Positions 5,786 through 38,173 of a stretch of DNA of 40,860 bases are shown here, in pieces (the first letter of the stretch is position 1; each line of letters begins with the position of its first letter). A program made the position numbers and the translations under genes. Under the pieces are notes generated by a model. That model was not told where the DNA came from, made no database searches, and saw nothing but the letters and a program-made list of their open reading frames with translations. Source of the DNA: Minisyncoccota bacterium (GTDB lineage: Bacteria; Patescibacteriota; Minisyncoccia; Phycocordibacterales; JBAZVT01). The stretch is from the NCBI GenBank assembly GCA_041660745.1, contig JBAZVT010000004.1, positions 1-40,860 on the forward strand. Direction: 5' to 3'.

Positions 5786-6979
5786 ATGCCCCAAATCAAA
5801 CCAGAAGTAGAAGCATTCGCACGCATTAAAGTCATTGGTGCTGGAGGTTCCGGAAAGAATGCGATAAACCACATGATTAATTCCAAAGTAAAAGGGATTG
5901 ATTTTATCGCAGTTAATACAGACGCCCAAGATTTGCACCACTCTCTTGCAAAGCGTAAAGTCCACATCGGCAAAAACCTCACTCGAGGACTTGGCACAGG
6001 TATGAATCCTGAACTTGGCAAACGTGCAGTTGAAGAAACAAAGGAAGAAGTTCAGGAAGCAATAAAAGGTGCTGATATGGTTTTCATTGCCTGTGGTCTC
6101 GGTGGCGGAACTGGCTCTGGCGCAAGTCCTGCAATCGCCCGTATCGCAAAAGAGCTCGGCGCTCTCACGGTGGCAGTTGTAACAAAACCATTTTTCTTTG
6201 AAGGTATGCAGCGTGTCCGTGTCGCAGAGCAAGCACTTGAAGAACTTCGCAAAGAAGTTGATGCTATTATTGTTGTTCCAAACGACAGACTCTTGAGCAA
6301 CATCACTAAAGAAACTACTGCAAAGGCAGCTTTCGCAATGTGTGACGACATCCTCAAACAAGCTGTGGAAGGTATTTCTGACCTTATCACTACCCCAGGT
6401 ATCATTAACATAGACTTTGCTGACATTAGAGCTGTCATGGCAAATGCCGGTTCAGCACTCATGGGTATTGGTTCCGCATCAGGCGAAAAACGTGCCGAAG
6501 AAGCAGCAAAAGCCGCAATTAACTCACCCCTACTTGAACTTTCTATTCATGGAGCAAAAGGTGTTCTGTTTTCAATCGCCGGCGGTGAAGATGTTACTAT
6601 GTTTGAAATCCAGGATGCAGCAAAAATCATCACCGAATCTATTGATCCAAATGCAAAGGTTATCTTTGGTACTGTCTATGATGACAAACTAAAAAAGAAC
6701 GAAATAAAGATCACAGTGATTGCTTCGGGTTTCCCAGAAATAGCCCAAAAGAAAAGCCTCTTCCATACCGAAGAATCAAAACAAATAAATCAGGATCAGC
6801 AGAAAGGTAAGATTTTTAATTCAGTACCAACCCAACAGAAAGAAGTGAAAGTCGAGGAAAAGAAATCAGAACCAGTTTTCACCCAACAGCCCGTCCGACA
6901 AGCTCCTCCTGTCATAGAAGATGAAAGTGATGATTGGAGTGCGGTACCCGCATTCTTGCGACGATCTAAATTGAAATAG
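5786..6979 (+). CDS. ftsZ: Cell division GTPase FtsZ
   Basis: GAGGSGKNAINHM, tubulin signature GLGGGTGSGASPAIA, NDRLL, conserved C-terminal peptide DDWSAVPAFLRR. Confidence 0.97.
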   Translation: MPQIKPEVEAFARIKVIGAGGSGKNAINHMINSKVKGIDFIAVNTDAQDLHHSLAKRKVHIGKNLTRGLGTGMNPELGKRAVEETKEEVQEAIKGADMVFIACGLGGGTGSGASPAIARIAKELGALTVAVVTKPFFFEGMQRVRVAEQALEELRKEVDAIIVVPNDRLLSNITKETTAKAAFAMCDDILKQAVEGISDLITTPGIINIDFADIRAVMANAGSALMGIGSASGEKRAEEAAKAAINSPLLELSIHGAKGVLFSIAGGEDVTMFEIQDAAKIITESIDPNAKVIFGTVYDDKLKKNEIKITVIASGFPEIAQKKSLFHTEESKQINQDQQKGKIFNSVPTQQKEVKVEEKKSEPVFTQQPVRQAPPVIEDESDDWSAVPAFLRRSKLK

Positions 6980-8590: not shown

Positions 8591-9990
8591 ATGAAGAAAT
8601 CTTTAATTATTAAATAGGAAAAATAGATGTAGAACATTGCAGTAAGCCCGAGCATGCATGACATGAAGATACTTGGACGTGCATACCTCGGCAAAAAACG
8701 ATTATTAGCATACAGTAATATCGGCGTATATATTGCCATTGTTACCCCACCAAGAACAGAACTGATAAGAAGAAAGCCGAGGGGCTGATTGAACGGTACC
8801 AATATTGCTGCGACTAAAATAAAGCATGTCATAAGCCCGTAATACAAATGATGGACCGAGATAGGTTCCAACCAATGGAACATTTTAACAAGTGGTCCAA
8901 CGCGAGAGTTAGTATGAATAATATCTGTAACCATTCTTGTTAGAGCATCAAACACAGTCCACATAACAGAAAAGAGCATAAGATATGCCATAACAAGATA
9001 AATTTTTTCTCCCCAAATTCCCCACTCTGACCCAAAAATAGCTGCTTGTGCCACCGCAACGTGGGTACCTTCTGGAATAATGCCCTGTGGTGCCAGTACG
9101 ACTTGAGCATTTGCAGCAAGAAGAACCATTGAGATCAAACCTGTAAACCAAAAGATAACAACCTGATCAATACGCATAAAACGCATCCATCCATGCCAAT
9201 TTTTCATATTTTCAGGTGTATGCTCAAACGTAAACGAAGAAACGGCAATCGCTTCGTGTTTTCCTGTAACAGGATTTTCTATTCTCCCCACATACGCACC
9301 CATACCCGCCTGCTTGTCTCGATACCACAAACTAACACAGAGATTCAACATTCCACCCGCACCGGAAAAAACGACGGCACCAAGGAGAACTTTCATATCA
9401 ATACCCTCTGGTATCCACCCAAAATTAATCAAACCTTTAAACACATCCACAAGGTGGTTGCCTCCAAGTGTTTGAGTGCTAATAGCTATCAACATGAGGA
9501 GAAATAGCGGCACTATGATTTTAAGACTCCTTTCAAGCATTACGTATGCCACCTTCCCCTTTAAAGTAAGCAGTAGAACAAGACCAAGAGATATCCATGA
9601 CCACATCACATAACTTCCAAAACCAAATAATTCAGTAAGAATTGTTCCGAGAGCAGTTGCCCACCCTGGCCACACATACAGCAATACCGCTGATAGAAGC
9701 CAAAATATCGGAGACCACTTTAACACTCTGCCAGATGTCGTAAAAAAACTTTCCCCCGTAGCGAGTGAATGTCGAGCAACTTCATGGTTGATAATTAGTT
9801 GAAGTGTAATACCGACAAGCGCAAGCCATAAAATCCCTAGACCATACTTTACTACTAAGTGAGGCCACATGATAAGTTCTCCAGTTCCCATTGCCATTCC
9901 CATGACAACAATACCAACACCAATGGCAGTCCAGAGACGCGGGGCTGGGGGAAAATTTCTTTTTTCATGTGTTGGATATTGAGAATTCAT
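8587..9990 (-). CDS. Nramp-superfamily-like membrane transporter (divergent; lacks the DPGN and MPH metal-site motifs)
   Basis: Start trimmed to MNSQYP (ATG 9990). About 11 TM segments. GTGELIMWP...YGLGILWLALVGITLQLIINHEVARHSLATGESF parallels the Nramp TM1-TM2 block (GPG...DPGN...FGY.LLW....Q..ARLG..TG). Confidence 0.6.
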   Translation of the reverse strand: MNSQYPTHEKRNFPPAPRLWTAIGVGIVVMGMAMGTGELIMWPHLVVKYGLGILWLALVGITLQLIINHEVARHSLATGESFFTTSGRVLKWSPIFWLLSAVLLYVWPGWATALGTILTELFGFGSYVMWSWISLGLVLLLTLKGKVAYVMLERSLKIIVPLFLLMLIAISTQTLGGNHLVDVFKGLINFGWIPEGIDMKVLLGAVVFSGAGGMLNLCVSLWYRDKQAGMGAYVGRIENPVTGKHEAIAVSSFTFEHTPENMKNWHGWMRFMRIDQVVIFWFTGLISMVLLAANAQVVLAPQGIIPEGTHVAVAQAAIFGSEWGIWGEKIYLVMAYLMLFSVMWTVFDALTRMVTDIIHTNSRVGPLVKMFHWLEPISVHHLYYGLMTCFILVAAILVPFNQPLGFLLISSVLGGVTMAIYTPILLYANNRFLPRYARPSIFMSCMLGLTAMFYIYFSYLIIKDFFI

Positions 9991-10111: not shown

Positions 10112-10184
10112 GGGCGGTTAGCTCAGTTGGTAGAGCGCAACATTGACGTTGTTGATGTCAGAGGTTCGAATCCTCTACCGCCCA
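10112..10184 (+). tRNA. tRNA-Val (anticodon GAC), no encoded CCA
   Basis: Manual cloverleaf: gggcggt/accgccc acceptor, gctc/gagc D stem, caaca-ttGACgt-tgttg anticodon arm, agagg-ttcgaat-cctct T arm. 73 nt. Confidence 0.93.
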
Positions 10185-10223
10185 CAGAAAAAATCCCCTC
10201 TAGGGGATTTTTTGCTGGGCGGT
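10177..10223 (+). terminator. tRNA-Val trailer hairpin/terminator whose stem reaches into the acceptor 3' strand
   Basis: aaaaaatcccc (10188-10198) pairs with ggggatttttt (10203-10213). The outer pair is accgccca (10177-10184) with tgggcggt (10216-10223). Confidence 0.7.
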
Positions 10224-10248
10224 AAAAAATCTCCAGGGGAGATTTTGT

Positions 10249-10339
10249 GAGGATTCGAAAGCCGGAGCGCGACGGCGCGAGGCGGGGTCGCGAGATTTTT
10301 CAGTAGAAAAATACTCGTGACCGAATCCTTTACCCCCGC
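10249..10339 (+). ncRNA. Candidate structured RNA module in the tRNA-Val trailer (three-way junction closed by an anti-T / T-prime stem)
   Basis: gaggattcgaa (10249-10259) is the reverse complement of the tRNA-Val T-loop plus 3' T-stem. Hairpins at 10262-10285 and 10287-10321. cgaatcct (10322-10329) pairs with aggattcg (10250-10257). A G.T pair in the long hairpin is legal only on the + strand. Confidence 0.4.
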
Positions 10340-10433: not shown

Positions 10434-10547
10434 CACCACAGGAGTACTTCTATTTCCCTAATTCGTAAAACTCATAAGGGAAATAAGTTGCACCACAAGA
10501 GTACTTCTATTTCCCTAATTCGTAAAACTCATAAGGGAAATAAGTTG
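10434..10547 (+). repeat. Tandem direct repeat, 2 x 57 nt (56/57 identical), each unit a bulged hairpin
   Basis: Unit caccaca[g/a]gagtacttctatttccctaattcgtaaaactcataagggaaataagttg at 10434-10490 and 10491-10547. Internal stem tatttccct/agggaaata. Confidence 0.95.
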
Positions 10548-13727: not shown

Positions 13728-14366
13728 ATGCCAATAGCATTAAGTATTATCGGCCCTCAAGGGTCGGGTAAGTCAACCCAACTGGAAATACTCCGAGCGC
13801 TCGGTTATGCCGCGATAGACATGAGTCAGGTGTTGAGTCCATCAGGATTCATCGCCTGGACAATGAGCTGGATCACGAGATTCAGCGAAAAAGGTCGTAA
13901 GCATGCACGAATAAAGCGCTGCATGAAAAAGGGATTGCTTGTGCCGGACGAAGATGTCCTGCAAATCCTTGAAGAGTATTTGAGCAAAATCCCCGCCGGC
14001 AAAAATCTAGTCTTTGTCGGCATGCCACGCAACGCCACACAAGCTCAGTACCTCGAGGCGCTTCTTCGGAAACGAGGGGTTACCCTTTATTACGTCATCC
14101 TTGAGATGCCAGAAGATGTCGCCCGCGAACGCATTGCCAAACGCGTTGAAGAAATGCGTGCAAAAGGTGAGGAACCGCGTGAGGATGACCTTGATCCGGA
14201 GACAGTCTCCAGGCGCTTAAGGAAATACTACGAGAACCTCGCCCTGATCAAGAAACACATCGCGTCTACCAACACTTCTTTCGGTAGCATAGACGCCCTG
14301 CTTTCTAAAAAAGAAGTAGCTCGAAGAATTTCGGAATTCATTCGCCCATTCTCCCTAGCTGCCTAA
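13728..14366 (+). CDS. adk: Adenylate kinase-family nucleoside monophosphate kinase (divergent)
   Basis: P-loop GPQGSGKSTQ, GLLVPDEDV, GMPRNATQA (~ DGFPRT..QA), short LID region, R.DD..E.V..RL..Y. Confidence 0.72.
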   Translation: MPIALSIIGPQGSGKSTQLEILRALGYAAIDMSQVLSPSGFIAWTMSWITRFSEKGRKHARIKRCMKKGLLVPDEDVLQILEEYLSKIPAGKNLVFVGMPRNATQAQYLEALLRKRGVTLYYVILEMPEDVARERIAKRVEEMRAKGEEPREDDLDPETVSRRLRKYYENLALIKKHIASTNTSFGSIDALLSKKEVARRISEFIRPFSLAA

Positions 14367-14391
14367 TGCACTGAACAACAAAATCATTAAT

Positions 14392-14420
14392 GCGACCCTT
14401 GGAAAAGGTCGCGTTTTTTT
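14392..14420 (+). terminator. Terminator after the adk-like gene
   Basis: gcgacc (14392-14397) pairs with ggtcgc (14407-14412), followed by gttttttt. Confidence 0.7.
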
Positions 14421-14543
14421 ATGCATAAATTTTCACAGGGAATAACTGTTGCTACTCGACCAGTACAGGTTTCCCATTTTTTCAGATTCAGAAATCATCA
14501 AAAACACGGGAGAACCTTTTCGATTCTGCGTGGGGACTACAAA

Positions 14544-14640
14544 TACCCAATGGGGAATCTCTCCTTACAGGAGCGGTACACCTCTTCCATTTTCTGTTCG
14601 GAACAACTCCAGAAAATTATCAGAGGTCTTCGATTCCCCG
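14544..14640 (-). ncRNA. Candidate structured RNA module in the tRNA-Glu trailer (junction closed by an anti-T / T-prime stem)
   Basis: - strand cggggaatcgaa (plus coordinates 14629-14640) is the reverse complement of the tRNA-Glu T-loop plus 3' T-stem. Hairpins at 14580-14627 and 14561-14573. gattcccc (14552-14559) closes the junction. Confidence 0.4.
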
Positions 14641-14664
14641 ACGCAACATTTTCCAAATGTTGCT

Positions 14665-14718
14665 TGAGGTCACAAAATAAAAACCGCCCAAAAGAGCAGT
14701 TTTTATTTTGTGACCTCA
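14665..14718 (-). terminator. tRNA-Glu trailer hairpin/terminator: 19-bp perfect inverted repeat that includes the acceptor 3' strand
   Basis: tgaggtcacaaaataaaaa (14665-14683) pairs with tttttattttgtgacctca (14700-14718); the right arm overlaps the tRNA 3' end. Confidence 0.7.
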
Positions 14719-14782
14719 CGGGGAATCGAACCCCGATTACAGCCTTGAAAAGGCCGTGTCCTAACCGTTAGACGATGAGGCC
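14711..14782 (-). tRNA. tRNA-Glu (anticodon UUC), no encoded CCA
   Basis: Manual cloverleaf on the - strand: ggcctca/tgaggtc acceptor (one G.U), cggcc-ttTTCaa-ggctg anticodon arm, cgggg-ttcgatt-ccccg T arm. 72 nt. Close to the E. coli tRNA-Glu layout. Confidence 0.9.
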
Positions 14783-14900
14783 AGAATAATTTACATTCGG
14801 ATGACTACTTTATCAGATAAAGTTGTTTAACCGAAACTAACTGCAATACTATAGCATTTTTTGTAAAAAACGCAAAAAAATGTTAACATTCGGGCTTAAT

Positions 14901-14987
14901 GGAGGATTGGCTGAGCGGTTGAAGGCACCGCACTCGAAACGCGGCAAGGGCGAAAGTCCTTCGGGAGTTCAAATCTCCCATCCTCCG
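14901..14987 (+). tRNA. tRNA-Ser (anticodon CGA), type II with long variable arm, no encoded CCA
   Basis: ggaggat/atcctcc acceptor, tggctgagcggttgaaggc D arm typical of tRNA-Ser, anticodon loop ctCGAaa (A31.C39 mismatch), variable arm agggcgaaagtccttc, gggag-ttcaaat-ctccc T arm. Confidence 0.88.
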
Positions 14988-15012
14988 CAGGAATTTAAAA
15001 CGAAGTTTTAAA

Positions 15013-15128
15013 GGGAGATTTGAAGACCTTGAGTATATCGCACGGACGATTGAGCACTATCGTGGCTTGGCCTCGGAGCGAGTAGGATACGAAAGGTGTA
15101 CAGAAACTGTAAGTTTCAAATCCCACCA
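15013..15128 (+). ncRNA. Candidate structured RNA module in the tRNA-Ser trailer / tsaD leader (anti-T / T-prime closed)
   Basis: gggagatttgaa (15013-15024) is the reverse complement of the tRNA-Ser T-loop plus 3' T-stem (14968-14979). ttcaaatccc (15115-15124) is a degenerate direct copy that can pair back. Small hairpins (acgat/atcgt, ctcg/cgag, taca/tgta) lie in between. Confidence 0.35.
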
Positions 15129-15150
15129 AATAATGAATTGATAAAATATT

Positions 15151-16374
15151 ATGATTATCTTGAGCATAGAGACATCTTGCGATGAAACCGCGGTAAGTAT
15201 TATAGAAGCTACGGGTGATCAAAACGCACCAGCTTTTACTGTACTTGGAAATGCTCTCTATTCTCAAATAGAACTCCACAAAGAATTCGGCGGTGTCTTC
15301 CCTGCAATGGCACGCCGAGAACATGCCCGAACACTTGTTCCCCTTTTTGTTGCAGCACTGAAAGAAGCCGGTCTATATAAAGAACGAGAATCAACATATA
15401 CCATTCCTCCAAATATTGAATCTTCCATCCGAATGACCATGGAAAAAGAACCTGTCATGGCGGAAGCATTTCTCGCACTTATTTCTAAACTAGAGAAACC
15501 CGCAATAGATGCAATTGCAGTAACTCAAGGACCGGGATTAGAGCCAGCACTCTGGGTTGGTATCACCTTCGCCAAGGCCCTTAATACGCTCTGGGGCATC
15601 TCTGTTATCCCCACAAATCACATGGAGGGTCACATCGTATCAGTGCTCACAGAGGGCAAAAATGGCCTAAAATCAATCCAATTCCCTGCTATTGCCCTTC
15701 TCATCTCCGGAGGTCACACGGAGCTTGTGTGCGTAAAGGGGTGGGGTGAATACGAGGTTGTAGGTTCTACCAGAGATGATGCCGTCGGCGAAGCTTTCGA
15801 CAAAGTCGCTCGTATGCTTGGACTCCCATATCCTGGCGGTCCTGAGATTTCCAAACTCGCACACGAAGAGCGTACGGCTTTCCCAATCTCTCGTCTCCCC
15901 GAACTCATTCCACAAACAATAGAAGAAAGCCCCTACGGTGCAATGATAACCAAACTTCCCCGTCCCATGATCCATTCTGCTGATTTAGATTTTTCCTTCT
16001 CTGGAATAAAAACGTCAGTGTTGTATATGATCAAAAAACTTCCAGAACTCACGCCTGATTTAAAAAAGGCAATCGCCCGAGAGTTTGAAGATGCTGTAAG
16101 TGAAGTACTTACAGGGAAAACTCGCCGAGCAGTAGAACAATATGGAGCCGAGACAATAATTGTTGGCGGAGGTGTCAGTGCAAACACGCTCATCTGTGAC
16201 TCAATAAAAAACTTACAGAAAGAATTTGAAGGACTTGAGGTTCGAGTTCCAACACGCAACCTCTCCACAGACAACGCCGTAATGATTGCAATTGCAGGCT
16301 TCATGCGTATCCTCCGAGGCAACGAACACTCTGTAGATTTCAGAGCAAAAGGTACGATGGGAATTAAAGAGTAA
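15151..16374 (+). CDS. tsaD: tRNA N6-adenosine threonylcarbamoyltransferase TsaD (Kae1/Gcp family), with two insertions
   Basis: ILSIETSCDETAVS, HMEGHI metal site, LLISGGHTEL, DFSFSGIKT, VGGGVSAN. 407 aa, where typical TsaD is about 340 aa. Confidence 0.92.
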   Translation: MIILSIETSCDETAVSIIEATGDQNAPAFTVLGNALYSQIELHKEFGGVFPAMARREHARTLVPLFVAALKEAGLYKERESTYTIPPNIESSIRMTMEKEPVMAEAFLALISKLEKPAIDAIAVTQGPGLEPALWVGITFAKALNTLWGISVIPTNHMEGHIVSVLTEGKNGLKSIQFPAIALLISGGHTELVCVKGWGEYEVVGSTRDDAVGEAFDKVARMLGLPYPGGPEISKLAHEERTAFPISRLPELIPQTIEESPYGAMITKLPRPMIHSADLDFSFSGIKTSVLYMIKKLPELTPDLKKAIAREFEDAVSEVLTGKTRRAVEQYGAETIIVGGGVSANTLICDSIKNLQKEFEGLEVRVPTRNLSTDNAVMIAIAGFMRILRGNEHSVDFRAKGTMGIKE

Positions 16375-16435: not shown

Positions 16436-19400
16436 TTATTTATTTTCTTCTGCAGTCTCTTCTCTAATCTTCAACACGAGATACGTGATTGCAACCACAA
16501 GCCCAACAATGATAAGTGGCAACAAAATTGTTAAAAAGTTAAACAATATAGCGAGAACAATGGCAATAGCAATTCCTGCCATGTAGAACATAATCCTACG
16601 GAAACGACGAGTCTTCTCATCGAGACCAACATAATTGGTTCGATCAATTACAAGAGTAATCACGTAGATAATAATGAGAATGATCAGGAGTATTGCAAGG
16701 GATCGTGCTCCAGCAGAAGGGGTTGCAGGTAAGGCAAACAAAGCAGCAGCAACGTTTCTAAAGTTCTGAGCAAAGAAGCTCGGAGTTGTTGAAGCTGTGG
16801 TGGTACTTATAGGCAAAATACCTATTTCACCATTGTTTATATCAATATTTTGCTCTTCTTCAGAAGGAACTGTTGGAATTTGTCCTTGAGTACCATTATT
16901 TTGTCCTTGAGGAACTGCGATACCTTGAGCTTTAAGTGAGTTCAAAAATGTCTTATATGCCGCGATTTCTCCCTCCTGTTGCACATTCAATGGAAAGGCC
17001 TTTTCGCAATATATCTCATTAACCTTTTTCTTGGTCAATATATAGACATACCCAGTACCTGTATTCCCATCGTAGCCCCATGGTTTAAGAATATCGTTTC
17101 TAAAGCCCTTTTGGAACTCCTTAACTGCGTCATATGTAACCTGGTCATAGAAACCAGTTACGGGAACATTTGTATATCCCATGAGATCGTGGAGGAATAT
17201 CTGTAATTTACGAACTTCTGTGGGATTGTTTTGTGCACCAAACTTAATGTATTCCAAAAGATAATTACATGTCACAGCAGTTGTTTGTGGAGCCAAGGTA
17301 AGCTCTTTGCCGAGCGCAGTTAAACTACCAGCTGTTGAATAGGGTTTGAAATAGTATGTTGAACCTGTTTTAAGGCCAAACACAAGCATTGAGTGGGTTG
17401 TAGAAGCAGCTGTCAATGTAACTGTTCCTGTTTCGTAACCAAAGTAAGGTGCTGACCCTTTTGTTGACTGAGAATTAAGTCCGTACACAACCTGTCGGGT
17501 TGCAGCACGGTTTGTTGTCCAACGAACAAGCGCGACTCCTGGGGCGAGCTCTTGAATTTGCTCGTTTGAAATCACCAATGATGCGCTGCCGCCACGGCCA
17601 CCGCCACCACCTCCATTACCACCAGATGTTACTGAAAAAGTAAGTGTCTTTGAGTCAATTCCGCAGGTTGAACTTGCTGCAATACCGATAGAATAGGTAC
17701 CCGCTTGCGTTGGTGTTCCCGAAATTACTCCTGTTGTACTTGCAAAAGATAATCCGGAAGGAAGTCCTGTTACAGAAAGTCCGAGGGTTGATGTTGAATT
17801 ATTTGTTGCAGTCAATGTGTATGAAAATGCAGTTCCAATCTTAATAGATGCCGAGAGACTACTTGTAATAACGGGAGTGGGACATGAAGAGATTGTTGTA
17901 ACAATCACCGTACGTGTCACGGGAATAGCTGTAGCACCCTGAGAATCTGTTACGTTATATGTGATTGTGTATGTCCCAACAGTCGTTGTGGCAACAGTAC
18001 TTGAGGCAATAATCTGTGATGTGATATCTCCATCTTCAGGGTCGGCAGCTGTAGCGCCTGGATCAGTAAAATTTGTTCCAACATTTATTGTCATCGGTGT
18101 CGTACCGAGAAGAGTTATAACTGGACGCTGGTTAGAACCGCCATTATTAACAACTGTTACGGTTCGAGTAACTGGATCTGCCGCAAGACCTTGAGAATCA
18201 GATACATTGTATGTAATTGTATATACTCCAAGAGTATTTGTTGCTACTGAACCCGTAACGACGATGTCCGATGTGATATTCCCATCTTCAAAGTCGAGAG
18301 CGGTAGCACCAAGATCGATAAAGTTTGATCCGACGGAAATAGTAGGTGCTGCAGAGCCAATTAATGTAATAACAGGCTTCTGGTTTGCAGCTGGTGATGC
18401 AGAAAATGTATTCAAAAGCACAAGAGTGCGATGGGTGGAACTAGCTGTGAGCGTTATTACGCCATCAGCATTATCAATGGTTTCATAAGGGAAAAAATTG
18501 GAAACCGAACTAACGGGTATAGTAAATTGATCGTTATATTTACCCGCTGCCCAAGAACTTCCAACAACAGTTTCTCTTGTGTAATTGTACTGACCAAGAG
18601 GAACAACAAAATCAACACAATCCGCATCATTCGTGCCAAGAATTATGGAACGATCTGGGGAAAAGGCTGAAGCAGTCAATGACCACTGGGCTGAAAATGC
18701 AGATGTATTAGCTGCGTTACTGAGACTAATTGAAAATGTACCTACAGGAAGACCTGTAGCACTCGTCTTCAAAACGTTATTTGAATCAGCAATCATCTTA
18801 CAAACAGATAATGTACCTGTGCCAGATGGAGTTGTTGTTGATCCATCTGTGGTTGCAGACGCTGAAGCCGATGCATCTACGTTTGAATTGGAACTCGAAC
18901 CAATACTTCCCCCCATAACAAAAGCTGTGGAAGAAGCTGAAGCGTCAGCTGATGCTGATGCAGATGCACTTCCTGCTGGCGAGGTTGTAGTCGCTTGCGC
19001 GAGAGCTGAAGCAAGAGCTTCTGCAGATGAATCTGCGAATGGTTCACCCGATGAGTTTATTCCTGCAGTACTTGCAGAATTTGCAGATGCATCCGCACTA
19101 GATGATCCAGACACAGTGGTTGGAATGGTTGTTGATGTAAGAGAAGCTTGCGCTGTTGAATTCGTATTGGCATTTGTTCCCGCGCCAGAAGCTACTGTCT
19201 GAGTACCAGTATCTATAGAACCAGAAGCATTACTATTAGCACCTGTTGAACCAGAAGCGGAGCCCGTTGCTGGAACACCGTCTCCAGAACCAGTAATAAC
19301 TACGGAAGATTGTGTGGAGCCATCAGAATTAGATGTTGATGTCGTAACTGTACCAGAACCTGTGTTTGAAGAATTATTAGAAGAAGAGGATGATGAGGAA

Positions 19401-37564: not shown

Positions 37565-37987
37565 TTACTGATTTTTAATATATTTATTCATTCGCCACTT
37601 CCTACCATTTCCCCTGTTGAGGTTCTTATAAAAAGGAGTGAGAGCGTGACAATTTGGACATAGTAGTTTGAGATTATCTTCTTGATTATTTTCTGAATTA
37701 CCATCTACATGTTCTATTTCTAACGGAACAACACCTGTAACTGGATGGTGTTTAGCCCAACTGCATTCAACACATTTATTATTAAATTTCTCTATAAAAT
37801 ATCGTTTTAAATGTTTAGAAATATTTCTTGTCGCTATACCCCTATTGCCCTGCAATAATCCATTTTTCCATAACCCTATCCATTTTTTATATTGAAAATC
37901 CATCTGACACTTGTTGGAACAGAATTTTATTTTATGTCTTTCTGTCAACAGAGACTCGCAACCAATACAAAATCTATCTTTTTTCAT
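37565..37987 (-). CDS. HNH endonuclease with an N-terminal Cys-rich zinc-finger-like segment
   Basis: C.EC...........LEIEHVDGNSENN..DNL.LLCPNCHA beta-beta-alpha-Me motif; CIGC....C..KC at the N-terminus. Confidence 0.85.
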   Translation of the reverse strand: MKKDRFCIGCESLLTERHKIKFCSNKCQMDFQYKKWIGLWKNGLLQGNRGIATRNISKHLKRYFIEKFNNKCVECSWAKHHPVTGVVPLEIEHVDGNSENNQEDNLKLLCPNCHALTPFYKNLNRGNGRKWRMNKYIKNQ

Positions 37988-38050
37988 AAGATAAGTATAC
38001 CACAGTAATTCCTCTCTATGGTCTACAGAAAACGCGAAATTTTACAAATC

Positions 38051-38108
38051 AGATGGCTCACAAAATAAAAACCGCACCTTTGTGCGATTTTTATTTTGTG
38101 AGCCATCT
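38051..38108 (-). terminator. tRNA-Thr trailer hairpin/terminator: 21-bp perfect inverted repeat that includes the acceptor 3' strand
   Basis: agatggctcacaaaataaaaa (38051-38071) pairs with tttttattttgtgagccatct (38088-38108); inner cgcac/gtgcg stem. Confidence 0.7.
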
Positions 38109-38173
38109 GTCAGGATCGAACTGACGACATCTACTTTACAAAAGTAGTGCTCTACCAACTGAGCTAAGATGGC
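38101..38173 (-). tRNA. tRNA-Thr (anticodon UGU), no encoded CCA
   Basis: - strand gccatct/agatggc acceptor, gctc/gagc D stem, ctact-ttTGTaa-agtag anticodon arm, gtcag-ttcgatc-ctgac T arm. 73 nt. Confidence 0.92.

Follow-up and report, generated by a model that had tools for sequence, protein, structure and literature searches.

The 3' ends of transfer RNA (tRNA) genes are classic landing sites of integrases, and in a radiation of bacteria with minimal genomes we find them occupied by tiny modules that encode no protein. Here we describe such modules in a stretch of 40,860 nucleotides (nt) from a Minisyncoccota bacterium (Patescibacteriota; contig JBAZVT010000004.1 of assembly GCA_041660745.1, positions 1 to 40,860), referred to below as the window. 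The trailer of its tRNA-Glu gene is two tandem copies of a module family, of which the copy proximal to the tRNA is fairly intact and the distal one decayed. The modules are non-coding, measure ~110-200 nt and lie directly 3' of tRNA and transfer-messenger RNA (tmRNA) genes; each combines an antisense arm complementary to the end of its tRNA and usually split by a hairpin (hpA), a structured core, and a direct repeat of the same tRNA end. We consider it well supported that they form a widespread, apparently undescribed family of structured modules specific to tRNA 3' ends in Patescibacteria (Paceibacteria). By analogy with described systems, a module would work most like a tRNA-targeting integrative element, and its fold would be most like that of an integron attC site or a CTX-phage hairpin.

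Islands and prophages that enter tRNA or tmRNA 3' ends by the Campbell-type reaction of a tyrosine integrase share with the modules the insertion point at the T-loop, the restored 3' end and terminator, the displaced direct repeat, the use of tmRNA, and tandem accretion with the older copies distal. The direct repeat expected of such an element is exact over 14-26 nt in module loci and degenerate (80%) in the Glu copy of the window. No integrase goes with it: the modules contain no plausible open reading frame (ORF), and no recombinase was found among the flanking ORFs of the window, among recurrent neighbours or in the gene cassettes of one array-bearing contig (L103; L numbers are our handles for loci). 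In contrast to these islands, a module is only 110-200 nt long and carries the reverse complement of its target together with a core structured as a single strand, and one module core family serves essentially all tRNA species, whereas a given family of integrases is confined to one tRNA or a few.

The integron attC site and the attP(+) site of CTX phage, a substrate of XerCD, resemble the modules in having inverted arms ~70-110 nt apart, a folded stem that mimics a duplex site, structure kept over sequence, G·T pairs on one strand only, and arrays that separate cargo genes, as in L103. The folded arms characteristic of attC and IMEX elements are present, since arm and direct repeat flank a core of 70-110 nt with covariation and one-strand G·U (G·T) pairs. 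The attC/Xer consensus is absent: the arms are the tRNA T-loop and 3' end, in which GTTCGAA misfits GTTRRRY and dif is likewise missing, no intI lies nearby, and the modules are not known to be linked to IntI or Xer. A further difference is that in the modules the loop itself is a conserved three-way junction and the arms are the 3' end of the local tRNA.

Other small elements share single traits. Miniature inverted-repeat transposable elements (MITEs) and the REP/BIME, Correia and RUP repeats are likewise short, non-coding, hairpin-rich, multicopy and non-autonomous, but the modules are placed strictly on the 3' side of a tRNA or tmRNA gene and in its orientation, and their inverted segments derive from the target and differ from tRNA to tRNA; they have no fixed terminal inverted repeats, and their duplications vary from 14 to >40 nt (14-50 nt). 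In the bridge (seek) RNAs of IS110/IS1111 elements and in H/ACA pockets, as in the modules, two guides around a hairpin pair with a contiguous target, and the scaffold is kept while the guides vary. The modules, however, have neither a recombinase in cis nor a Cbf5-type gene and leave no target nucleotide unpaired; no DEDD or serine recombinase ORF was found near the window modules or the related loci; and whereas the two halves of a bridge RNA address opposite strands, both antisense halves of a module complement the tRNA-sense strand in one continuous pairing around hpA. The primer-binding site of long terminal repeat (LTR) retroelements is also an 18-20-nt complement of a tRNA 3' end reaching into the T-arm, but the modules have no reverse transcriptase or LTR. 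We rejected this identity, as a complement of CCA is missing, the pairing runs into the trailer (tgtgacctca vs tgaggtcaca), and TGG appears only behind genes that encode CCA. Tandem inversion duplications and quasi-palindrome switching yield the same direct-inverted-direct order, with one junction in the terminator hairpin and a perfect Watson-Crick inverted copy; unlike the modules, they are sporadic, have no conserved core with covariation and are not repeated across hundreds of tRNA genes. TIGR arrays, built of 36-nt units with 9-nt spacers, are unrelated.

Two tandem modules behind tRNA-Glu

An original prediction, made from the sequence of the window, had listed on the minus strand behind tRNA-Glu a terminator, a small hairpin, an antisense copy of the T-loop, two further hairpins and a degenerate copy of the tRNA 3' end. 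All of these elements were recovered at their predicted coordinates (Table 1). The arms of the terminator-like palindrome cover the A/U-rich trailer and, within the tRNA, the discriminator and the 3' strand of the acceptor stem; the claim that its stem would include the acceptor strand thus holds, but its arms are 23 nt, longer than the 19 bp proposed. A simple terminator scan returned zero sites in 14300-15200 and did not call this palindrome. An ordinary intrinsic terminator or trailer was rejected as an account of the locus, for the palindrome is present but a conserved, covarying module of 90-120 nt lies beyond it.

The gap between the anti-acceptor and the anti-T segment is exactly 24 nt, so that the complement of the last 20 nt of tRNA-Glu is present but split, just as had been proposed, and the splitting element is hpA, whose 21-nt hairpin has 9-bp arms and a 3-nt loop. 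Anti-T is an exact 12-nt complement of its tRNA, and its 3' end, GAA, forms a sharp boundary with the core. When 14544-14664 is folded alone, it forms hpA, an 8-bp helix of anti-T with T-prime that closes the junction, a long nested hairpin and a short hairpin (-44.7 kcal/mol, z = -4.8, with 0 of 200 shuffles as stable), which reproduces the predicted arrangement. When tRNA-Glu and module are folded together, the minimum-free-energy (MFE) structure pairs the 3' half of the tRNA with the trailer (-112 kcal/mol, z = -9.9). T-prime is degenerate, as foreseen, with 80% identity between 14545-14559 and 14713-14727; it is better read as a decayed direct repeat that is exact over 14-26 nt in intact relatives.

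For an independent view of the window we used a covariance model (R1) built from 42 modules of the type found here (type B), all from metagenome contigs and none from the window. Searched over the 40.9 kb with filters off, R1 gave three matches, at the Glu module, at a module behind tRNA-Ser and at a degraded second Glu copy, and nothing else below E = 2; the E-values come from a short calibration and are rough. The ~120 nt beyond T-prime, described earlier as an ORF-free remainder, are therefore not featureless but mostly filled by the degraded copy (E 3.5e-7). Here the tRNA 3' end and trailer recur as one contiguous inverted stretch (14519-14545, 27 nt, 74% complementary), and P2 is retained, while P3 is almost wholly deleted; the copy adjoining tRNA-Glu is the better preserved of the two.

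Together with one module each behind tRNA-Ser and tRNA-Val, the window holds four module copies. The Ser module comprises an A/U hairpin, an anti-T (15013-15024) that is the exact 12/12 reverse complement of 14968-14979, a core and a truncated T-prime (15113-15127), and no terminator or anti-acceptor separates it from its tRNA. It shares the 8-mer gaagacct with the Glu module, as first noticed in the original prediction, and is >90% identical to a module in L008, a locus with a TsaD identity of only 51%; between the two modules P3 shows a compensatory change. Behind tRNA-Val the order is terminator, anti-acceptor (10216-10224), hpA (10225-10246), anti-T (10249-10259), core and T-prime (10323-10337). 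The likeness drawn earlier between the Val and Glu trailers is correct in that both, with Ser, belong to one architectural family with the same flanking logic; it fails for the core, which at Val is of another type (type A) and nearly identical to the cores of L107 and L140. Downstream of the Val module, at 10434-10547, stand two 57-nt tandem repeats that are 98% identical; a related motif adjoins a type-B fragment in L024, and this may be a further module type.

Table 1. Positions of the tRNA-Glu locus elements and of the other modules in the window
Feature	Position	Strand	Basis and details
tRNA-Glu(UUC), CCA not encoded	14711-14782	-	ARAGORN and Rfam tRNA model, 60.9 bits
X, last 20 nt of tRNA-Glu (T54 to A73), the segment copied by the module	14711-14730	-	
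Terminator-like palindrome	14665-14718	-	Arms 14665-14687 and 14696-14718, 23 nt, 96% complementary, 8-nt loop
Anti-acceptor, the part of the distal palindrome arm complementary to the acceptor strand	14665-14672	-	
Hairpin hpA with flanks A and GU	14641-14664	-	Inverted repeat 14643-14663 and fold; 9-bp stem, 3-nt GGA loop
Anti-T, cggggaatcgaa	14629-14640	-	12/12 reverse complement of 14719-14730 (T54-G65, T-loop and 3' T-stem)
Type-B core, proximal Glu copy	14550-14640	-	Model R1, 53.7 bits, E 7.6e-11; MFE fold; covariation
P1 of Glu core	14632-14639 paired with 14552-14559	-	
P2 of Glu core	14580-14627	-	
Junction GUAC of Glu core	14576-14579	-	
P3 of Glu core	14561-14573	-	
T-prime, degenerate direct repeat of the tRNA 3' end (gattccccattgggta vs gattccccgtgaggtca), 3' strand of P1	14544-14559	-	
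Second, degraded tandem type-B module	14448-14545	-	R1 match 14448-14530, 38 bits, E 3.5e-7
Possible third, strongly decayed copy of the tRNA 3' end (ttattccctgtgaaaat)	14428-14444	-	By eye, weak
Type-B module behind tRNA-Ser(CGA), gene 14901-14987	14994-15127	+	R1 match 15013-15127, 45.1 bits, E 7.7e-9
Type-A module behind tRNA-Val(GAC), gene 10112-10184	10186-10337	+	Sequence; core match to L107 and L140

General anatomy of the modules

Across the family the locus can be written as tRNA[1-53]-X-t / t'-X' (usually split by hpA) / core / X-(t), where X runs from T54 to the discriminator, t is the trailer with the terminator, and X' is the reverse complement of X. The 3' segment of the tRNA is thus triplicated, direct, inverted and direct. 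The intact tRNA and its terminator are retained upstream, and the core, a conserved three-way junction of which there are at least two types (A and B), sits at the inverted-to-direct junction, exactly at position 53/54. In the many members with an exact downstream repeat of 14-26 nt, this begins at T54 or C56, and it often runs into the trailer (L006, L117, L124, L135); in some members a small optional hairpin (NNN-UAMU-NNN-GG) separates the T-loop of this repeat from its 3' T-stem.

A hairpin of at least 7 bp occupies the hpA position in 39 of 46 modules, with 42 distinct stems, loops of CUGC, CUAC or UGGGA, and a CGU linker in 23 of 46. Its placement inside X' varies, after nt 65 in the window Glu module and after 62 in L142 and L130. 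The junction between X' and core is exact: in none of 42 aligned modules is GAA (the complement of T54-C56) followed by C. Decay is slower in anti-T and in the T-stem portion of the direct repeat (~0.10 mismatches per nt) than in the acceptor-related parts (~0.17-0.18).

Sites where a tRNA stem holds a G·U pair or a mismatch tell the two possible origins of the antisense arm apart. At 45 of 51 such sites X' is complementary to the 3' strand by Watson-Crick rules, and at one (1/51) it repeats the 5' strand, which identifies the arm as a templated or selected complement. A tandem tRNA paralogue or pseudogene is ruled out by the same counts, and ARAGORN does not call the modules. At tRNA-Arg(CCU) of L106 the T-stem of the gene is itself mismatched (gtagg/cccgc), with anti-T and direct repeat matching the 3' strand; the 3' end of this tRNA may be chimeric, supplied by a module.

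Distribution of the family and match to the local tRNA

Model R1 gave 12 matches in 80 related genome loci and 122 in 96 loci; of the latter, 86 come first behind a tRNA or tmRNA on the same strand, 11 follow another module in tandem, 22 stand as orphans and 3 are at the edge of a contig. Scanned with the P3 motif of type B, metagenomes yielded at least 120 contigs; as these members were picked by the P3 pattern, its invariant positions are partly invariant by construction. Among the matches listed, 81 of 125 have a same-strand tRNA end within 400 nt upstream (median ~130 nt), and tRNAs of 16 amino acids carry modules. Both the scan and R1 also found modules at tmRNA-like 3' ends.

The match between module and local tRNA was counted over 266 tRNAs from the 80 related loci and the window. 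An exact reverse complement of at least 11 nt to the last 30 nt of the same tRNA occurs within 400 nt downstream of 32 of them, compared with 5 upstream and 3 among 1105 permuted tRNA/trailer pairings; these matches nearly always start at T54, 45-80 nt downstream. Allowing up to one mismatch in anti-T, the counts are 34 downstream, 4 upstream and 1 in 847 permuted pairings. Enrichment over both kinds of control means that the pattern exceeds chance. Of 74 metagenome modules among the matches listed, 36 carry a 12-nt anti-T that fits their own tRNA exactly, and in 49 it has at most one mismatch. A single core subtype (at least 80% identical) stands behind seven tRNA species, Gln, Tyr, two Glu isoacceptors, Trp, Arg and Pro, and each copy bears anti-T and arms matched to its own tRNA. 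A comparison of whether anti-T tracks the tRNA or the direct repeat is confounded by the optional hairpin in the direct repeat and was not used as evidence.

With gathering and permissive E-values alike, only tRNAs pass the Rfam 15 search of the window regions, five intact type-B loci and one type-A locus; every other family match scores far under its threshold. Phage and plasmid records gave no BLAST match to the window modules, and the type-A pattern had 0 matches in viral contigs. The type-B pattern matched viral contigs seven times; none of the seven is near a tRNA, the single match inspected falls in coding sequence, and we take them as chance. The full-text literature searched holds no description of such modules.

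Covariation in the core

In the type-B core, anti-T and the direct repeat form P1; GAA leads from P1 into P2, and GUAC from P2 into P3, whose loop is UGUAA and whose 3' strand continues into the repeated T-loop. These three helices are also what RNAalifold gives, strongly covarying, so that the anatomy seen in the original prediction is general. Over 121 distinct type-B sequences, 93.8% of the cells in these helices are paired, against 68.4% in shuffles, and 360 cells show a double change, against 97.5; 0 of 500 shuffles reach the observed covariation, and controls with slid helices collapse. The type-A core has a P2 (GNC/GNC, with a GGA/GA internal loop) and a long P3 (GGUCG...UGACC); 14 of its 20 pairs show compensatory change, and one pair is invariably G·U (22 of 22 sequences).

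The wobble pairs reveal the strand. P2 of type B holds 21 G·U against 4 A·C, and since G·U wobbles would be A·C on the other strand, the functional form would be RNA or single-stranded DNA of the tRNA-sense strand. The core thus appears constrained as a folded single strand of that sense, most simply RNA read through from the tRNA. The three-way junction, the conserved GAA and GUAC, the GGA/GA loop and the invariant G·U pair are indirect hints of a putative self-cleaving or self-splicing ribozyme. Three readings made by eye were dropped: a hammerhead, because CUGAUAA lacks G8; a K-turn, because the bulge of the type-A internal loop is 1 nt and not 3 nt; and box C/D, because the spacing to CUGA misfits the box D rule.

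Turnover, arrays and neighbouring genes

The original prediction had been staked on the pattern recurring at orthologous tRNA-Glu loci, and it does so, patchily: modules occupy 12 of 41 tRNA-Glu(UUC) loci, 11 of 38 Ser, 8 of 55 Val, 6 of 46 Phe, 4 of 44 Arg and 5 of 33 Gly loci. A search with adk found no close relatives in the protein collection; one with TsaD found a single relative, 88% identical (L208), while the best species of the genome collection reach ~55%. This relative differs from the window at Val, Ser and Glu. Its tRNA-Val is followed by a type-B module and then by a 3' remnant of a type-A module orthologous to that of the window, its tRNA-Ser by a type-A module with an exact 17-nt direct repeat, and its tRNA-Glu has no module, ending 2 nt before the ATG of tsaD. 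Behind tRNA-Val, terminator and anti-acceptor are ~80% identical between window and relative while hpA and core are unrelated, so the exchanged unit seems to be hpA, anti-T and core. At L208 5625-6003 the divergent pair of tRNA-Glu and tRNA-Ser is inverted in comparison with the window, L002, L005 and L006, and the spacer holds an 18-nt duplicate of the tRNA-Ser 5' end; the inversion confounds a reading of this tRNA-Glu as an empty site.

Tandem copies occur also in L015, L059 and L099. In L096 (4655-5000) four tandem 88-nt type-B units stand behind tRNA-Arg(UCG), bounded by anti-T and a truncated T-loop copy. In L103 (2540-6640), on a contig without a tRNA, four type-B modules separate Fic/RhuM, MOSC and zeta-toxin genes in the manner of a cassette array, each module preceded by a variant copy of the tRNA-Tyr 3' end. 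In L075 the order is tRNA-Glu, 2 kb of cargo, module and a 21-nt direct repeat; elsewhere on L075 (733-1071) a GIY-YIG ORF separates tRNA-Val from a direct repeat, 26 nt long, of the T-arm and 3' end of this tRNA. A GIY-YIG gene also follows a module directly in L036 (~6000-6130), and HNH and GIY-YIG genes adjoin tRNAs in these genomes. Several loci (L142 3729-4398, L164, L205, L127 and others) have LAGLIDADG-like ORFs of ~220 amino acids that end a few nt before tRNA-Gly(GCC), with YraN-family nuclease genes nearby. YraN, LAGLIDADG-like proteins and ParB, brought up by clustering of neighbour ORFs as candidate partner enzymes, were rejected because they mainly reflect conserved tRNA-Arg/Gly/Pro synteny.

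Interpretation of the modules

What the sequences show is the anatomy, its recurrence, the match to the local tRNA, the covariation with its strand bias, the patchiness and turnover, and the arrays. We favour, at a probability of about 0.5, a non-autonomous, structured element of insertion or accretion with the T-loop of tRNA genes as its target. Each new unit would enter beside the tRNA and push older ones distally, where they would decay; the tRNA would be regenerated upstream, its old 3' end being displaced to become the 3' strand of P1, which would be closed by pairing of anti-T with the direct repeat, and the 5' strand of P3 would pair with the near-universal GGTTC of the T-arm. Templated by the 3' strand of the local tRNA, the arms would arise, or stay matched, through template switching at a hairpin or quasi-palindrome or through copying at insertion, and not by duplication of the 5' half of the tRNA; such copying would explain the strict Watson-Crick arms and their extension into the trailer. 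We infer the movement itself, the direction of accretion, an intermediate of RNA or single-stranded DNA, and an enzyme, which would have to act in trans.

Several observations weigh against this insertion element. Clustering of neighbour ORFs found no recombinase, reverse transcriptase or HUH nuclease in the modules or consistently beside them, and the L103 cassettes are likewise without a recombinase. No pair of empty and filled sites with alignable flanks was found, and at the one tRNA-Glu that looks empty the inversion breakpoint falls at the tRNA 3' end. The terminator and anti-acceptor behind tRNA-Val are orthologous in both relatives although hpA and core differ, which misfits a model in which every insertion brings its own terminator. 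The hairpin hpA sits inside the antisense arm at variable positions, which pure by-product copying does not explain. Finally, the >90% identity of the Ser and L008 modules at a TsaD identity of 51% would equally fit an RNA of benefit to the host. A bolder version, which we hold only tentatively and think doubtful, is that of a new kind of mobile RNA-structured element: a core that is protein-free or served in trans (a ribozyme or guide scaffold, perhaps) would pair with the universal T-loop, insert at 53/54, template the inverted and direct copies, and so be re-programmed at each tRNA.

Among readings without mobility, the module could be a cis-acting switch of the host in the pre-tRNA, transcribed together with it, in which anti-T and anti-acceptor compete with the cloverleaf, T-prime serves as a decoy, and folding, 3' processing or decay is controlled. 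The joint fold, in which the tRNA 3' half pairs with the trailer while the module alone closes P1 with T-prime, suits such a switch, as do the lack of a terminator between tRNA-Ser and its module, the slower decay of the T-related segments (~0.10 vs ~0.17-0.18 mismatches per nt), and the covariation with G·U strand bias. We nevertheless think it unlikely, and the pre-tRNA trailer device implicit in the original prediction found no support: the module is missing from 70-90% of orthologous tRNAs and from the tRNA-Glu of the close relative, which abuts the tsaD start codon, close relatives carry different core types behind one and the same tRNA, tandem as well as degraded copies are common, orphan copies stand without a tRNA, and a terminator-like palindrome usually precedes the antisense arm. 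Structured, conserved cores would be expected of a processed tRNA-like small RNA, in which anti-acceptor, hpA and the 5' portion of anti-T would pair with the direct repeat into an acceptor/T-stem-like helix that ends at the discriminator; excised by RNase P and RNase Z, it would act in trans as decoy for a protein that binds tRNA, or as primer or tag for a retroelement. In intact members the antisense arm and direct repeat do form a helix of 12-21 bp whose 3' strand, the tRNA 3' end, runs through the discriminator, and a terminator-like hairpin follows half of the intact direct repeats against 28% of random windows, a high background that leaves the difference suggestive only. What makes this reading quite improbable is that the 5' arm is a Watson-Crick complement and not a tRNA 5' half, and that it pairs with the T-loop as well, leaving no T-loop or elbow; in addition, hpA loops are mostly tetraloops and not anticodon-like, in many members, among them both type-B copies of the window, either the anti-acceptor or the acceptor portion of the direct repeat has decayed or is lacking, and neither ARAGORN nor Rfam calls the modules tRNA-like.

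The modules might also be passive scars, attL/attR remnants of integrase islands combined with template switching at terminator hairpins, with the core as residual element DNA. Cargo islands with tRNA 3' repeats do exist in the same genomes (L051, L075), homing-endonuclease genes lie beside tRNAs, tRNA-Thr of the window has only an extended palindrome, and work on Salmonella from the Roth laboratory reportedly describes A-A'-A tandem inversion duplications of the same direct-inverted-direct layout. Residual DNA, however, would be without compensatory substitutions in three helices, an invariant G·U pair and conserved junction nucleotides, and near-identical cores stand behind many tRNAs in different genomes, so that scars are a very improbable account. 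As for chance, an ordinary terminator with fortuitous short repeats, the T-loop sequence TTCGAA is palindromic and inflates short inverted matches; with anti-T exact at 12/12 positions at both Glu and Ser, the enrichment over controls, and independent R1 E-values of 1e-7 to 1e-11, we give it practically no credence.

If the modules move as an insertion element, they would constitute a new way of targeting and regenerating tRNA genes, by self-matching arms or templated triplication of the target, and a new class of non-autonomous element for Patescibacteria, whose mobile elements are poorly known; should the RNA-based form be true, L103-like arrays would be an integron-like cassette system of ultra-small bacteria anchored on tRNA genes. 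If they are host RNAs, they would represent a new class of tRNA-linked regulatory or tRNA-mimicking RNA. Either way, they account for much of the seemingly empty intergenic DNA beside tRNA genes in these genomes, and covariance models of the modules are ready for use in annotation.

Further observations in the window and in related loci

By Pfam, the flanking ORFs of the window encode adk, TsaD, CYTH and AIR synthase-related domains. The tRNA-Thr locus (38041-38173, minus strand) is without a module; its palindrome has the acceptor 3' strand within its arms (cagatggctcacaaaataaaaa / tttttattttgtgagccatctg), the trailer cacaaaataaaaa is common to tRNA-Thr and tRNA-Glu, and an HNH endonuclease ORF comes next (37565-37987).

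In L095 (~400-700) and close to a contig end in L180, a tRNA 5' fragment (D-arm and anticodon arm) takes the place of a whole tRNA before a type-B core, with an intact tRNA of the same type just downstream; these loci may be rearranged or intron-like. Behind tRNA-Gly(CCC) in L010 (~17700-18045) and L019 (~9190-9413) there is a repeated unit of a hairpin, ccctcggttgag, and a complete T-arm with the acceptor 3' strand; one such unit is called a tRNA by ARAGORN, and we regard it as a different kind of tRNA 3'-half repeat.

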